UHGV virus genome: UHGV-1558646
Direction: 5' to 3' (one strand)
Source: a virus
Length of the DNA: 11,251 nt
A program made the position numbers and the translations under genes. Below are positions 5,420 to 11,196 of the stretch, in pieces (within the stretch, counting starts at the first letter, position 1; the number at the start of each line of letters is the position of its first letter). The notes beneath the pieces were generated by a model, which was not told where the DNA came from, did no database searches, and saw only the letters and a list, made by a program, of their open reading frames with translations.

Positions 5420-5434
5420 GCGCTTTGTCAGCGC
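5420..5434 (-). promoter_or_regulatory. nutL boxB RNA hairpin (P22-type, GACAA loop)
   Basis: Minus strand reads GCGCTGACAAAGCGC: 5-bp stem, 5-nt GACAA loop. This matches the P22 boxB-left sequence as I recall it. Located about 130 nt upstream of the N start codon. Confidence 0.55.
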
Positions 5435-5460
5435 CGTAGATTCATATTCGAATCGTTGTA

Positions 5461-5481: not shown

Positions 5482-5511
5482 GTGCGTCCTGCTGATGACG
5501 ATAATAATGAA

Positions 5512-5542
5512 CCAATAGTTCGACATTATCAAGAACTATTGG
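5512..5542. promoter_or_regulatory. 31-bp palindrome CCAATAGTTC-N11-GAACTATTGG
   Basis: Perfect 10-bp inverted arms at 5512..5521 and 5533..5542 in the PL control region, between the moron terminator and nutL. Confidence 0.3.
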
Positions 5543-5716
5543 TACGAATTTTGGTGATTTATTAACTCTACGAAGTATGATTCTGATATATAAGGAAATT
5601 TATTTTTGAAAATGTGGCTGATGAAGGTTATGCGGCAGGGATCAGAACTGCATGGTTTAGCGAGTTACATCAATAAATACAATTGGTTATGTGTTTTTAG
5701 GTGGGGGATCGAGAGG

Positions 5717-5743
5717 CAAATAAAACCCGGCTCGGTGGCCGGG
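5717..5743 (-). terminator. Intrinsic terminator closing the repressor/moron transcript
   Basis: GC-rich stem CCCGGC / GCCGGG (5726..5731 and 5738..5743) followed on the minus strand by TTTTATTTG, about 14 nt after the TAA of the 341-aa gene. Also T-rich on the plus side. Confidence 0.55.
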
Positions 5744-5756
5744 GTTAGATTTTCTG

Positions 5757-6782
5757 TTACGGGCGAGTGATGGTTGATGCGTTTCCGTTTTCTATTACAC
5801 CTGCTCGTATCGTGTAGCTTCCCAAGATTTTTACTGTCCTGTTTTCTTTCATTGCATCAAACAGTATGGCGATCTCGTCTTTATCATCTATGAACGACGT
5901 GTCCACCGAAACAGGGAAACTGTCTTCACTAGATGGTTCGCGGCAGCTTAGGGTTATCTTTTCCGCAGTACGCTTGATTCCATCAATGACTAATTCAAGG
6001 TTTCTTTCTTCTTTTTTTGCTTTTTCGATAGGGTTCTTGATTAGTTCGTGGATTTCTTTGTTAGACAGTTCAACTGTGCTTGCGCCTGATATGACAATTT
6101 TGTCAGCATCAGACGCGCCTTTTAATACCCCTGTATACGCTTTTGCAGTATGCTCTTGAATCCCTTCGGCGCGCTCTACTGCATCTATGCCCGCTTTAGC
6201 TCTAATCGCCTCAAGCATTCCGTCCCTTAATATCGTCATGCGCTCGTTTTCTGATTTAATCTTGGCTTCTTCGAGCTTTGTTTCTTCTTGCTTGACTTCT
6301 ACTTCGGCTTTTTTCTCTAAGTATGATGTACCAACCCATGCACCGCCTATAACGGTGACAGCAAACAAGAAGCATAATGTTTTTTGGCTAGGACTCATAC
6401 CGTGTGTTACCTTCTCAAAGGCTTTACCGAATGCTTCAAAAAGCTCTGTTAATGCAGCAAGTATATCAGTACAACCTTCATTAATGGTAAAGATGATCTC
6501 TGCTTCCTCTTTATCTTTACCAGTTAACCTTTGAAGGTTGTCAGTTTTATATTTTATTAGTGTGAAAACTTTATAAATTTCAGTCTGAAATTCGCATAAA
6601 CCCTGAGCTAGAGGAGATGGAAGCGTTCCGTTGTAGCGAGAAGGATCACCATAAATCTTAAAATTCACATTATTGAAGAGGTCTAACTTGATCCTGTCGA
6701 TAGTGATCTCTTCGCCACCATCTAACCTTGCAAACAAAGATTCAATGTCGTCCAGACTTGAAACATTAATAATATCTTTCAT
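5757..6782 (-). CDS. Unknown membrane-anchored coiled-coil protein (341 aa) in the rexAB-equivalent slot; candidate exclusion/abortive-infection gene
   Basis: ORF track 5757..6782. ATG at 6782 with SD GAAGGTG. One predicted TM helix (TLCFLFAVTVIGGAWVGTSYL, about residues 136-156) followed by a K/E-rich coiled-coil. AT-rich relative to the repressor and replication genes. 80 bp downstream of the repressor stop on the same strand. Confidence 0.7.
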   Translation of the reverse strand: MKDIINVSSLDDIESLFARLDGGEEITIDRIKLDLFNNVNFKIYGDPSRYNGTLPSPLAQGLCEFQTEIYKVFTLIKYKTDNLQRLTGKDKEEAEIIFTINEGCTDILAALTELFEAFGKAFEKVTHGMSPSQKTLCFLFAVTVIGGAWVGTSYLEKKAEVEVKQEETKLEEAKIKSENERMTILRDGMLEAIRAKAGIDAVERAEGIQEHTAKAYTGVLKGASDADKIVISGASTVELSNKEIHELIKNPIEKAKKEERNLELVIDGIKRTAEKITLSCREPSSEDSFPVSVDTSFIDDKDEIAILFDAMKENRTVKILGSYTIRAGVIENGNASTITRP

Positions 6783-6862
6783 TACAACACCTTCGGCACA
6801 ACCTTGCTAGTTAAATTAGTGATTATAAAAATTGGATACTTACCAGCTATGTGACGATGAAG

Positions 6863-7570
6863 TCACGAACTTTTCAGCCACTCCCTTGCCTCGATGTCAT
6901 CCAGATGGCGAGATTGCTTCAGAATACCAGCCACATACTCCACCTTTGCTACTTGATGATAAGGCAACGTTATTGGCCTGTGGTCTTGGTTGATGCTTGT
7001 AAATTGGTATTCTCCATCTCTGTCATAGCCAAGAACCTTAATCATGTTGTGTCCTTCAACGGTTCTGACAAACACCTCATCACCCGGGAATACTTTGGTG
7101 TTAGGCTCAATGAGTACATATTCTCCTGATTTTATTCTGGGCCACATGCTGTCTCCTTTCACACGAAGGCCAAAGGCATCTGGATCATCGCTATAAATTT
7201 TGAGCCACCCATCGCGCTCTTCGGTCATCTCGATGGCACCATCAACACCAAGAATTGCCTCACCAACCACGCGCACTAACCCTTTTTTTAATTTGCCAAC
7301 AAATGAAAGAGTATCTTCATCATTCGCTCCATTTAACGAAGTGCCGTGCTGAAGCCAAACAACATCAACGTTTAGAAATTTCGCAAGCGCATTCATTTTT
7401 TCCTGACGCGGTAAAGACTCAGCATTAAACCATTTGCTAACGCCTTTGGACGAAAGAGAAAGGGCACGGGCTATAGCCATTCCCCTACCATGTTCATCAA
7501 GACCAGCTTCTTTACAGGCTTGCGCTAGCCGCTGGGCGAATTCTTTGCGCACTTTTTCATTCTGAACCAT
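6863..7570 (-). CDS. cI: Prophage repressor, cI-type (N-terminal HTH plus C-terminal S24 LexA-like autopeptidase, 235 aa)
   Basis: S24 signature VKGDSMWPRIKSGEYVLIEP...GDEVFV with a downstream Lys (NMIKVL). N-terminal HTH-like segment. Divergent from cro across a 78-bp operator region. Not a lambda cI or P22 c2 sequence match. Confidence 0.85.
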   Translation of the reverse strand: MVQNEKVRKEFAQRLAQACKEAGLDEHGRGMAIARALSLSSKGVSKWFNAESLPRQEKMNALAKFLNVDVVWLQHGTSLNGANDEDTLSFVGKLKKGLVRVVGEAILGVDGAIEMTEERDGWLKIYSDDPDAFGLRVKGDSMWPRIKSGEYVLIEPNTKVFPGDEVFVRTVEGHNMIKVLGYDRDGEYQFTSINQDHRPITLPYHQVAKVEYVAGILKQSRHLDDIEAREWLKSS

Positions 7571-7648
7571 GAGTACGATACTAAAGCACTTGCAAAAACT
7601 TTCAGTTCAATCATAATGCGTACTGAAAGTACGAAAAAGGATATCCCT
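7571..7648. promoter_or_regulatory. cI-cro intergenic switch: candidate PR and PRM promoters with palindromic operator sites
   Basis: Palindrome CGTACTGAAAGTACG at 7619..7633 and related inverted site AACTTTCAGTT at 7597..7607. Candidate PR -35 TTGCAA (7590..7595) and -10 CATAAT (7612..7617). Minus-strand TAGTAT -10 (7583..7578) ends about 7 nt before the cI ATG, implying a near-leaderless cI mRNA. Confidence 0.5.
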
Positions 7649-7876
7649 ATGCAAAATCTTGATGAGCCGATTAAAGGTGTCGGCATCCCTGAAGTTGCGA
7701 AGGCTTGTGGAGTTAGCGAAAGAGCTGTCTATAAGTGGCTCAAAAACGGCTTCCTCCCTAAGACTGAGTTTTTTGGGAAAACGAAATACGCATCAAAAAT
7801 CGAAGAGATTTCTGGTGGCAAATATCAAGCAAGCGAAATGCTTGAAATAAGCAAAAAGAACCTTCTGGCTGCATAA
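7649..7876 (+). CDS. cro: Cro-type HTH regulator (75 aa)
   Basis: ATG at 7649 with SD AAGGAT at 6-nt spacing; the ORF-track start at 7616 would place the operator palindrome inside the coding sequence. HTH segment GIPEVAKACGVSERAVYKWLK. Position divergent from the repressor. Confidence 0.65.
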   Translation: MQNLDEPIKGVGIPEVAKACGVSERAVYKWLKNGFLPKTEFFGKTKYASKIEEISGGKYQASEMLEISKKNLLAA

Positions 7877-7883
7877 GTAACAC

Positions 7884-7929
7884 CGCTATTTTCACAATGG
7901 ACATTCGTCCTACGTCGCTGACAAAGCGA
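7884..7929 (+). promoter_or_regulatory. nutR: boxA-like CGCTATTTTCACA plus boxB hairpin TCGCTGACAAAGCGA
   Basis: boxB at 7915..7929 has a 5-bp stem and the same GACAA loop as nutL. boxA-like element at 7884..7896 resembles the lambda boxA consensus CGCTCTTACACA. Lies between cro and cII as in lambda. Confidence 0.5.
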
Positions 7930-8014
7930 GTCCCAATATATCTGACCAACTAAGGCCATATGCGTTTCCACGCATACCTTTCAACTAACTATTCACTATT
8001 GGAAATCTTAAGAA

Positions 8015-8311
8015 ATGGAACAAACAAGTTACAGCAAACTATCACAGCGTGACGTTGATCGCGCAGAAACAGATTTACTCATCAACCTGTCAACTATTAC
8101 CCAGCGCGGTCTGGCAAAGATGATTGGCTGTCATGAATCGAAGATAAGCAGGACGGACTGGAGATTTATTGCTTCGGTCCTGTGTGCTTTCGGAATGGCA
8201 TCAGACATCAGTCCGATTAGCAGGGCTTTTAAGTATGCGCTTGATGGAATCACCAATAAAAAACGCCCGGCGGCAACCGAGCGTTCTGATCAAATACAAA
8301 TGGAATTTTAA
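8015..8311 (+). CDS. cII: CII transcriptional activator (98 aa)
   Basis: C-terminus ...ITNKKRPAATERSDQIQMEF is near-identical to lambda CII (recalled: ...ILTNKKRPAATERSEQIQMEF). Positioned downstream of cro and nutR. Confidence 0.85.
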   Translation: MEQTSYSKLSQRDVDRAETDLLINLSTITQRGLAKMIGCHESKISRTDWRFIASVLCAFGMASDISPISRAFKYALDGITNKKRPAATERSDQIQMEF

Positions 8312-8333: not shown

Positions 8334-8477
8334 ATGCGAAAAACGCAGGAAAATAAACGCGTTAATCACCGAAAAGATGTGCTACGTGACCAGTTTTATC
8401 AGGGAGTTAATCCAGCAATAGCTGTGCCACTGAGAGAAATACTTAACAGGTACAAAACTTCGGAGAAGTCAAAATGA
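8334..8477 (+). CDS. Small basic hypothetical protein (47 aa)
   Basis: ATG at 8334 with SD GAGG at 7-nt spacing. TGA overlaps the ATG of the replication initiator (ATGA). The ORF-track version (8169..8477) overlaps cII in another frame, so the internal start is preferred. Confidence 0.4.
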   Translation: MRKTQENKRVNHRKDVLRDQFYQGVNPAIAVPLREILNRYKTSEKSK

Positions 8478-9205
8478 GCATGAATCTTATGGCTAAGGCC
8501 ATGAATATAAAGGTTGGCAACCCACTGAGAAAACTGGTTCTGATTAAACTTGCCGATAACGCCAATGATAATGGCGAATGCTGGCCTTCATATCAACATG
8601 TCGCTGACCAGTGTGAGGTGAGCAGATCGACAGTAAAAAGTCACATTAGGGCACTGGAAGAGATGGGTCTTTTGAAAAGGGAATGCAGAAGAAAAGGAGA
8701 GCTTAACCAGTCAAACGTTTTTTATCTGACGCTGGATAATGCACAACAAATCCCACCAGAATCAGGTGGGGCAGGAGCTGCCCCCAGAACCTATCACTCT
8801 TTTGAACCAGTCAATGAACCTAAAAACATTATGTTCGAACATGTCCGAACGGAGTGGGAAAAAACTCCTGACCGTCACGAAGAAACCGACAAGGCATTCG
8901 AGGAAATATTCTGGTGTGCAGGCATGCGGAAAGCCGGGAAGAAAAACGCAGCTTCAGCATTCAGAACACAGTTCAGGGAATGGCGTAAAACTACCAGGGG
9001 TACGGCAAGCGAGTTTGCCACGATGCTGGCAGAAGACATCGCATGCAGGAATGGTAAGCAGTTCGGATTCGACAGGTTGTTACCATCGAGCTACCTGAAC
9101 GGTCAACGCTGGAACGACGAGAAGCCAGAAACTATTCAACCACAATCCAAACCATCATCCGCAATCACCGTATCGAAAACTGGCTACGTGTTTTTCGACA
9201 GGTGA
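8474..9205 (+). CDS. Replication initiator / replisome organiser, O-like, with N-terminal HTH (243 aa)
   Basis: N-terminal LVLIKLADNANDNGECWPSYQHVADQCEVSRSTVKSHIRALEEMGLL resembles the HTH domain of phage replication initiators. Low-complexity linker PPESGGAGAAP. Located in the lambda O position. Confidence 0.7.
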   Translation: MSMNLMAKAMNIKVGNPLRKLVLIKLADNANDNGECWPSYQHVADQCEVSRSTVKSHIRALEEMGLLKRECRRKGELNQSNVFYLTLDNAQQIPPESGGAGAAPRTYHSFEPVNEPKNIMFEHVRTEWEKTPDRHEETDKAFEEIFWCAGMRKAGKKNAASAFRTQFREWRKTTRGTASEFATMLAEDIACRNGKQFGFDRLLPSSYLNGQRWNDEKPETIQPQSKPSSAITVSKTGYVFFDR

Positions 9206-9208
9206 ACC

Positions 9209-9316
9209 ATGAAATCCAGAATCAAATCGTTACTTATCGCTGGCTATAACCATGGCTGGCTTAGTTCTGCATTCGTTGAGTTCTGGTTTAACCGTCTCGA
9301 TCTGAGGTCAGCGTAA
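9209..9316 (+). CDS. Possible small ORF (35 aa) between the initiator and the primase
   Basis: ATG at 9209 follows AGGTGA. Translation MKSRIKSLLIAGYNHGWLSSAFVEFWFNRLDLRSA. Its TAA overlaps the primase ATG (TAATG). Below the ORF-track size cutoff. Confidence 0.3.
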   Translation: MKSRIKSLLIAGYNHGWLSSAFVEFWFNRLDLRSA

Positions 9317-11196
9317 TGACTCCAAGTGAACTGAGCGACCTGCTTTGGGCGCAGGTTGACAGGGTGGCTCCGCACCTGTTGCCAAACGGCAAGAAAGAGG
9401 GGCATGAGTGGGTTGCCGGTAACGTTAACGGTGACAAGGGAAACAGCCTTAAGGTCAACCTTAGCGGCAAGAAAAAATGGGCTGATTTCGCTGAGGGAGA
9501 CGGCGGTGACATGCTTGATTTGTGGATGGCATGTCGTGGAATTAACCTGCATCAGGCTATGCAGGAAGCGAAAGCATTTCTCGGTATCAAGGATGACGAT
9601 CACCATTTCGATGCCAGACGTGAGAAGAAATTCTCCAGACCTGATCGCAAGAAAATCGCCAGTTACGTTACCAGAACAGAATCCCATCTTGAGTACCTGC
9701 AATCGCGTGGCATATCGCCAGAAGTCGTAAAGCGCTACGAGGTTGTCAGCGGCAAGGTGTGGAATGGAGAGCGGGAACTGGATGCTCTGGTGCTTCCGTA
9801 CAAACGCGATGGTGAGTTGTTGCAGGTCAAGCGAATCAGCACTGAGCGCCCGGACGGGAAGAAAGTCATTATGGCAGAAGGTGATTGCGAACCTTGTCTG
9901 TTCGGATGGCAGGCTCTGGACGCTGGCGTGAGGGCGGTTGTACTTTGCGAAGGCGAAATTGATTGTATGAGCTATGCGCAATACGGCATCTCGGCGTTAT
10001 CCGTGCCGTTTGGTGGCGGGAAAGGCGCTAAGCAGCAGTGGATTGAGTTTGAGTATCACAACCTCGACAGGTTTGAGGAAATATTCATCTCGATGGATGT
10101 TGATGATGTTGGTCGTGAAGCCGCAAGGGAAATCGCAAGCCGACTCGGTGAACATCGTTGCCGTCTTGTTACTCTGCCGTACAAAGACATCAACGAATGC
10201 CTGATGAACGGTGTTACCGAGGATGAAATCTGGCAGTACATCGGCACGGCATCCTACTTCGATCCTGAAGAACTCTACAGCGCGCGAGAGTTTTACCAGG
10301 ACACTATCAACGCTTTCTACGGCAAGCAGCAGTATCTGTTTAATCCACCGTGGGAATCTCTGGCAGATAAATTCCAGTTCCGTGAGGCCGAGTTGACGCT
10401 GGTCAATGGTGTGAACGGTCACGGAAAAACGGAGGTTGTCGGGCATATGGCACTTGAGGCAATGCGTCAGGGTGTGAAGACGTGCATCGCGTCACTTGAG
10501 CTGAAGCCTGGTATTCTCCTTAAGCGCCTTACCCGTCAGGCGACGTGCTGCAAGATGCCGCCAGTGCTGGAAATTGACTCTGCATTTAAATTTTATGACG
10601 AAAGACTTTGGGTGTTTGGCCTGACCGGAACGGCGAAAGCCGACAGGCTGATCGAAATATTCGACTACGCTCGCCGCCGATACGGTATCCAGTTATTCAT
10701 CATCGACAGCCTGATGAAATGTGGCATAGGCGACGATGACTATAACGGGCAGAAGGCGTTTGTTGACTCGATTTGCGACTTCAAAAACAAAACAAACTCC
10801 CACGTCATTCTCGTTACTCACTCGCGAAAAGGAGACAGCGAAGAAAAACCAACCGGGAAAATGGACGTAAAAGGCTCTGGAGCGATAACAGACCTGACAG
10901 ACAACCTTTTTATCATCTGGCGTAACAAGGCTCGCGAGAGAGCGTTACAGAGAGTTCAAAGCGGTGAACAGATGTCAGAGAAGGACGAACAGCTACTGGT
11001 GTCTCCGGCATCTGTTTTGTTGCTTGAAAAACAACGTAACGGTGAAGGTTGGGAAGGTGGTATCCCGTTGTTCCTTGACGAGCAATCGCACCAGTTCCTG
11101 CAACTTGAATCAGGATCTCCATATAGCTACATCGCCAATATGCCGAAATCGGAATATGACGAGGCGTGGAGACAGGAAAACGTGACGGAGTATTAA
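9316..11196 (+). CDS. Bifunctional DNA primase (TOPRIM) / RecA-fold DnaB-like replicative helicase (626 aa)
   Basis: TOPRIM motifs VVLCEGEIDCMSYAQ (catalytic Glu) and ISMDVDDVGREA (DxD). Helicase Walker A NGVNGHGKTEV and Walker B LFIIDSLMK. SD GAGGT before the ATG at 9316. Confidence 0.85.
   Translation: MTPSELSDLLWAQVDRVAPHLLPNGKKEGHEWVAGNVNGDKGNSLKVNLSGKKKWADFAEGDGGDMLDLWMACRGINLHQAMQEAKAFLGIKDDDHHFDARREKKFSRPDRKKIASYVTRTESHLEYLQSRGISPEVVKRYEVVSGKVWNGERELDALVLPYKRDGELLQVKRISTERPDGKKVIMAEGDCEPCLFGWQALDAGVRAVVLCEGEIDCMSYAQYGISALSVPFGGGKGAKQQWIEFEYHNLDRFEEIFISMDVDDVGREAAREIASRLGEHRCRLVTLPYKDINECLMNGVTEDEIWQYIGTASYFDPEELYSAREFYQDTINAFYGKQQYLFNPPWESLADKFQFREAELTLVNGVNGHGKTEVVGHMALEAMRQGVKTCIASLELKPGILLKRLTRQATCCKMPPVLEIDSAFKFYDERLWVFGLTGTAKADRLIEIFDYARRRYGIQLFIIDSLMKCGIGDDDYNGQKAFVDSICDFKNKTNSHVILVTHSRKGDSEEKPTGKMDVKGSGAITDLTDNLFIIWRNKARERALQRVQSGEQMSEKDEQLLVSPASVLLLEKQRNGEGWEGGIPLFLDEQSHQFLQLESGSPYSYIANMPKSEYDEAWRQENVTEY

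Follow-up and report, generated by a model that had tools for sequence, protein, structure and literature searches.

Immunity region of the Shiga-toxin phage 933W, with a leaderless cI mRNA, in a lambdoid prophage of different assembly

The window, i.e. the whole stretch of 11,251 bp analysed here, contains two divergently oriented regulatory genes. The first, cI (6863-7570, minus strand, ATG 7570-7568), is an open reading frame for a repressor of 235 aa with an HTH_3 and a Peptidase_S24 domain (Pfam; Peptidase_S24, 4.4e-16). The second, cro (7649-7876, plus strand, ATG 7649-7651), encodes a protein of 75 aa with an HTH domain (Pfam), and a CII gene is located downstream of it (Pfam). Such a divergent pair, a repressor with an HTH and a LexA-like S24 autopeptidase domain and a small HTH Cro, is characteristic of a lambdoid switch. 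Both proteins are identical to their counterparts from the Shiga-toxin phage 933W, CI in 235 of 235 residues and Cro in 75 of 75 (100%). The two start codons are separated by a spacer of 78 bp (7571-7648). An earlier note, made from the sequence alone, had described a compact divergent cI-cro switch of this length; the open reading frames and the Pfam domains agree with this description, and each element it listed lies where it had been placed. Its statement that the whole control region measures only 78 bp holds for the length of the spacer, but not for the confinement to it: one operator, OR3 (7563-7577), covers the cI start codon, and the control region therefore extends 8 bp into cI, beyond the spacer.

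Transcription starts were taken from the Cappable-seq map of EDL933, which covers eight growth conditions (Zehentner et al. 2023, Table S5), and the bases were checked. In the 933W prophage of this strain, cI occupies 1345558..1346265 on the minus strand, with the A of its ATG at 1346265, the last base of the coding sequence; cro begins at 1346344. The map gives one gene-specific start each for cI, cro, and the leftward operon. Like the published binding data, these starts were measured on 933W and not on the T7611/G7618/C7645 allele of the window. On the plus strand, the promoter PR consists of a -35 element TTGCAA (7590-7595), which was found by a promoter scan, is part of the annotated 933W pR and is conserved in the closer relatives, and a -10 element CATAAT (7612-7617), likewise found by the scan and annotated in 933W. 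The pair has a 16-bp spacer and matches 9 of the 12 consensus positions. PR transcription starts 8 nt downstream of the -10 element at a G at 7625 (EDL933 1346320(+), listed in 8/8 conditions), which is position 7 of OR1. A discriminator of 7 nt is common to PR and the two other promoters described below, PRM and PL. A general scan for promoter-like consensus sequences gave 4 sites in the window where 6.3 were expected, i.e. no enrichment; therefore, our promoter calls are based on mapped starts and conservation and not on consensus matching. The cro leader is 24 nt long, and Cro would be made from it by means of a normal Shine-Dalgarno sequence, AAGGA (7637-7641, plus strand; anti-SD duplex of -5.4 kcal/mol), which is annotated as ribosome-binding site in KU238068. 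We also considered an in-frame ATG at 7616-7618, which would add 11 codons to the open reading frame (7616-7876), as the cro start. Because this codon lies upstream of the mapped start at 7625, it is not part of the mRNA, and Cro starts at 7649.

Three operators without assigned strand, each recognized by annotation and dyad pattern, are arranged around these elements. OR1 (CGTACTGAAAGTACG, 7619-7633) is a dyad with perfect 6-bp arms and, according to published data, the site of highest affinity. OR2 (AAAACTTTCAGTTCA, 7595-7609) lies within the PR spacer. OR3 (TGAACCATGAGTACG, 7563-7577), annotated as oR3 in 933W and in GQ499361, is located over the cI ATG and centred on the PRM start. Two of these operators had been seen as palindromes: the one at 7619-7633, described as overlapping the PR start, is OR1, with the mapped start at 7625 inside it, and the second one between TTGCAA and CATAAT (AACTTTCAGTT, 7597-7607) is the core of OR2. 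The recurrence of GTACGA, also near PL, was noted at the correct positions (7573-7578, 7630-7635, and 5542-5547). These are the outer half-sites of OR3, OR1, and OL2, respectively; OR3 had thus been seen only as a half-site and not been recognized as a whole.

The palindromes had been assigned to an ACT-N3-AGT type. The sites themselves stand, since they are the footprinted operators, but this motif is not what the repressor recognizes: ACT-N3-AGT alone gave 4 matches in the window against 2.08 expected, which is not significant. The recognition unit is a 15-bp dyad with the half-site nG(A/T)AC(T/C)n. A 13-bp dyad built from the three OR sites only, RWACYNNNRGTWY, had 5 exact matches in the 11,251 bp against 0.58 expected, and none of 200 shuffles gave 5 matches. 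The two matches outside the building set (5509-5521 and 5533-5545) are 24 bp apart and lie beside the PL promoter. If one mismatch was allowed, 11 extra matches against 11.0 expected were obtained, none of them near PL, and no third OL-like site was found in the window even at this stringency. As in other lambdoid switches, related dyads are hence present at OR (n=3), with further copies at PL (n=2). We attach next to no weight to the reading of the palindromes as chance dyads, or as an RNA hairpin or terminator, instead of protein-binding sites. A simple scan does mark 7633-7619 on the minus strand as terminator-like, and a chance origin would agree with the lack of enrichment of ACT-N3-AGT by itself; however, the full dyad is strongly enriched and restricted to OR and OL, and the palindromes are the published, footprinted operators of 933W. 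The mapped starts also exclude a terminator hairpin at OR1: the PR transcript begins inside the palindrome and therefore cannot fold it, and on the minus strand, transcription from PRM begins only downstream of the palindrome.

The two operators beside PL, again without strand and both the same in 933W, are OL1 (TGAACCAATAGTTCG, 5508-5522) and OL2 (AGAACTATTGGTACG, 5532-5546, the site with GTACGA near PL). They are centred at -19 and -43, respectively, of PL (5496-5532, minus strand), which was found by the scan and has a -35 element TTGATA (5532-5527) and a -10 element CATTAT (5509-5504). Its start at 5496, 8 nt past CATTAT, corresponds to EDL933 1343173(-), again listed in 8/8 conditions; the start base is A in the window and G in 933W. 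The OL/PL/nutL region is otherwise near-identical to that of 933W, with both operators unchanged. A 19-nt inverted repeat with 95% complementarity (5421-5439 / 7910-7928) joins the regions that are annotated as nutL and nutR in 933W.

The similarity to 933W extends over the whole immunity region. Window positions 6840-7950 share 99% DNA identity with this region of 933W and 100% with the PhiR12 phages, and OR1, OR2, OR3, OL1, and OL2 are the same as in 933W at every base. In the spacer, together with the ends of the coding sequences on either side of it, the window is distinguished from 933W by only three substitutions (T for C at 7611, G for A at 7618, and C for T at 7645), none of them in an operator. 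Position 7618 adjoins OR1 and falls within the reported size of the hydroxyl-radical footprint, 18 bp. The 933W GenBank annotations oR1, oR2, and oR3 map to 7619-7633, 7595-7609, and 7563-7577, pR to 7590-7617, and pM to 7578-7605; these annotations coincide exactly with the elements of the earlier note, and the operator positions are the same in two further records (GQ499361 and KU238068). The operator region was found in 427 of 5,426 complete E. coli genomes (about 8%), and the minor allele of the window in about 22. The OR/OL immunity region of 933W is said to have been annotated by Plunkett in 1999 and reportedly was studied by Koudelka and by Tyler in 2004 and by Bullwinkle and Koudelka in 2011.

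The behaviour of the identical protein on identical sites has been published for 933W. The CI dimers bind five 15-bp dyads, OR1-3 plus OL1 and OL2 at PL, and binding and regulation were followed by EMSA, DNase I footprinting, and in vitro transcription. The five natural sites of 15 bp each show rotational symmetry about a central A/T pair; half-site positions 4 and 5 are invariant (A and C), position 6 is T in 7/10 and C in 3/10 half-sites, and position 2 is G save in one OR2 half-site (Bullwinkle et al. 2012). The five sites of the window match every one of these published statistics exactly. In intact OR, the relative dissociation constants reported by the same laboratory for OR1 : OR2 : OR3 are 1 : 13.6 : 26.4, with OR1 bound most tightly; this laboratory also found that the repressor occupies adjacent sites without pairwise cooperativity, that OL3 is absent, and that intermediate concentrations of repressor stimulate PRM and about four-fold higher ones repress it. 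The 933W repressor shuts off both PR and PL (published). Cro is assumed here to bind the same sites as CI.

Taken together, window positions 7563-7648 are, with a probability of about 95%, the OR region of a lambdoid prophage that is of immunity type 933W and whose CI, Cro, and five operators do not differ from those of this phage. The same CI and Cro, the same OR and OL sites, and the presence of two OL sites only define this type. The comparison with related immunity regions that had been proposed for deriving an operator consensus led to identical sites in 933W, and to a shared layout in four relatives (see below). The distinct immunity specificity proposed earlier is correct insofar as the operators differ from those of lambda and P22, but it is not a new one. 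The switch is already known: it is the characterised lysis/lysogeny control region of 933W, and nothing in the switch itself is new.

Transcription of cI starts from PRM on the A of the AUG (7570, minus strand; EDL933 1346265(-), 8/8 conditions), and PRM is identical in 933W. The -10 element TAGTAT (7583-7578, minus strand) belongs to the annotated pM of 933W, with 7 nt between the hexamer and the A of the ATG, as had been noticed before. The mapped start and this -10 element place a weak -35 element, CTGAAA (7600-7605, minus strand; 16-bp spacer), in the centre of OR2 and at the upper end of the annotated pM. The EDL933 Cappable-seq map shows no further minus-strand start in the cI-cro spacer. 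The cI mRNA is therefore leaderless, its transcription starting on the A of the ATG, and it should be translated as such, like the cI mRNA of lambda. The earlier note had considered this probable, and the published starts for cI (7570) and cro (7625) are consistent with both -10 elements proposed there.

A different view of the 933W cI mRNA is found in the literature. Citing Tyler et al. 2004, Chakraborty et al. 2018 (PMC5977221) ascribe, in passing, a Shine-Dalgarno sequence to the repressor mRNAs of 933W and 434 but not to those of lambda and BAA2326, and KU238068 labels the equivalent of window positions 7578-7583 as a ribosome-binding site. Accordingly, cI could be translated from a leadered, Shine-Dalgarno-containing PRM transcript that starts upstream of TAGTAT. 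We regard this as very unlikely. The only intergenic minus-strand start falls on the A of the ATG under all conditions, and no Shine-Dalgarno sequence is present within 20 nt of the cI ATG, the best anti-SD duplex in this stretch having +0.6 kcal/mol compared to -5.4 for cro; five relatives behave likewise. Moreover, the hexamer labelled as ribosome-binding site (ATACTA/TAGTAT) is a -10 box and not purine-rich, and a TAnnnT hexamer exactly 7 nt from the cI ATG is found in all six sequences compared and conserved in five lineages. Hence, both the sequence and the Cappable-seq starts speak against the Shine-Dalgarno statement for 933W cI. Our literature search found no paper that states the transcription start of 933W PRM; it was the Cappable-seq supplement that settled the point.

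An arrangement of PRM as in lambda was also considered. TTGCAA is palindromic and reads the same on both strands, and its use as a minus-strand -35 element (7595-7590) together with CATGGT as -10 element and a start at ~7560 would place OR2 at -42, as it is in lambda, and require a downstream cI start codon. However, the Cappable-seq map lists no start near EDL933 1346255, the next minus-strand starts being more than 600 bp downstream; a transcript from ~7560 would be without the cI ATG, and the N-terminal residues of cI, MVQxEKVR, are conserved in relatives as distant as HK022. This lambda-like PRM is rejected by the transcription-start data, and we consider it extremely improbable.

We compared the region with four relatives, the Salmonella phages MG40 and MS2 LVA, the Providencia phage PSTNGR2lys, and the coliphage HK022. 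The identity of the DNA-binding domains goes down to 63% (Providencia phage) and 50% (HK022), and the layout is the same throughout: all four have a spacer of 77-80 bp, one operator over the cI ATG, as OR3 in the window, a second one 32-33 bp away, and a third one 24 bp beyond. The hexamers 7 nt from the ATG are TACTAT, TATAAT, TATTAT, and TATAGT, and none of the four has a Shine-Dalgarno sequence. The nearest relative of immunity type 933W is HK022. With its 79-bp spacer, OR3 (TGAACCATAAGTTCA) over the cI ATG, OR2 33 bp away and OR1 24 bp beyond, half-sites of the TG(A/T)AC family, TATAGT 7 nt upstream of the ATG, and the absence of a Shine-Dalgarno sequence, HK022 resembles the window, whereas the DNA-binding domain is only 50% identical and the operator sequences differ in detail. 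Carlson and Little are said to have found, in 1993, that the HK022 repressor binds in a highly cooperative manner; the 933W repressor reportedly does not. In Salmonella phage MS2 LVA (L008 2391-3179), 933W-like operators and a similar DNA-binding domain are combined with a different C-terminal domain of the repressor. This domain has a canonical VQAG (Ala-Gly) cleavage motif and illustrates domain shuffling in the repressor family.

With lambda, the window shares the divergent cI and cro genes, three OR operators, repression of PR, positive and negative autoregulation of PRM, and a cI mRNA that starts at the AUG when made from PRM. In contrast, the lambda sites are 17 bp long and all lie in a 100-bp spacer, while those of the window are 15 bp long and OR3 overlaps the start codon. 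The lambda PR and PRM starts (38023 and 37940) are 83 bp apart, compared to 55 bp in the window. The centre of OR2 lies at -42 of PRM in lambda and at -32 in the window, and that of OR1 at -17 of PR in lambda and at +2 in the window. Furthermore, lambda has OL3 and cooperative binding, and 933W has neither.

Relative to the mapped starts, OR1 is centred at +2 of PR, OR2 at -23 of PR and -32 of PRM, and OR3 at +1 of PRM. The operators thus overlap both promoters, as is typical of lambdoid switches, with the starts at 7625 and 7570 located at the centres of OR1 and OR3. With OR1 covering the PR start and OR2 placed within the spacer of PR, both sites should block RNA polymerase at this promoter. 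Likewise, the centre of OR3 coincides with both the PRM start and the cI start codon, so that an occupied OR3 would shut off cI and account for negative autoregulation. The -35 and -10 elements of the two promoters interdigitate, and with their starts so close together, PR and PRM should be mutually exclusive.

Positive autoregulation is less easily explained. In lambda-type activation of PRM, the repressor contacts sigma region 4 from an OR2 that is centred about 42 bp upstream of the start and abuts the -35 element. This arrangement is not found here: only 32 bp separate the centre of OR2 (7602) from the start at 7570, and the -35 element lies in the centre of OR2. Since OR2 is located on the PRM -35 element and not beside it, the stimulation of PRM is not explained by analogy to lambda. 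The contacted half-sites of OR2, at about -26 to -29 and -35 to -38 of PRM, flank the -35 hexamer, and in the model of Bullwinkle et al. 2012 the repressor side chains do not come close to the central base pairs (positions 7, 8, and 7'). It is conceivable, but on balance rather doubtful, that PRM stimulation in the 933W/HK022 family occurs not through a lambda-type contact at -42 but either through a back-face arrangement or through relief of occlusion. In the former case, the repressor would be arranged similarly to lambda CII at PRE. In the latter, a filled OR1 would relieve the occlusion by PR-bound RNA polymerase, and OR2 would then act negatively on PRM.

The lambdoid prophage that carries the 933W immunity region here is assembled differently from 933W. 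The core elements of PR, PRM, and PL as well as nutL/nutR are those of 933W; the region between cI and the terminator and the replication module are different. An open reading frame for 341 aa (5757-6782, minus strand) follows directly on cI and is itself followed by a bidirectional terminator (5726-5743); it takes the slot that is occupied by L0084, L0083, stk, and L0081, the stk cluster, in 933W. It matches PHROG 6191 (unknown function) and gave no hits with Pfam or PADLOC. It is probably a cargo gene that is transcribed together with cI and expressed in the lysogen. Weaker Cappable-seq starts inside the 3' part of 933W cI (EDL933 1345609 and 1345644, window positions 6914 and 6949, minus strand) are assigned to the downstream gene; given the homology of the window to 933W at these positions, such starts might drive the 341-aa open reading frame, too. 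On the other side, a replication module (8474-11196, plus strand) encodes an HTH_36 protein and a 626-aa Toprim/DnaB-like primase-helicase. This is not the O/P pair of the 933W or PhiR12 phages, and the window is therefore a mosaic. Among the phage genomes and the complete E. coli genomes searched, no record covered at least 80% of the window, although each of its modules is present there. At the 5' end of cII, TTGCTGTAACTTGT (8024-8037, minus strand) differs by one mismatch from TTGC-N6-TTGC and is a possible CII site of PRE; it is the only match to a CII-type box in the window, and one-mismatch matches of this kind occur at chance frequency.

The operators and the promoters have been recorded before, and so, through the public Cappable-seq data, has the leaderless cI start. 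The value of the analysis is accordingly modest: it exposes a conflict in the literature on the Shine-Dalgarno sequence of 933W cI, and it documents the leaderless architecture with OR3 over the ATG as common to phages from 933W through HK022. For the prophage of the window, the assignment means that it is homoimmune with the Stx phage 933W. This predicts its superinfection immunity and its SOS inducibility, and also the low repressor level ("hair-trigger" induction) that has been described for 933W.
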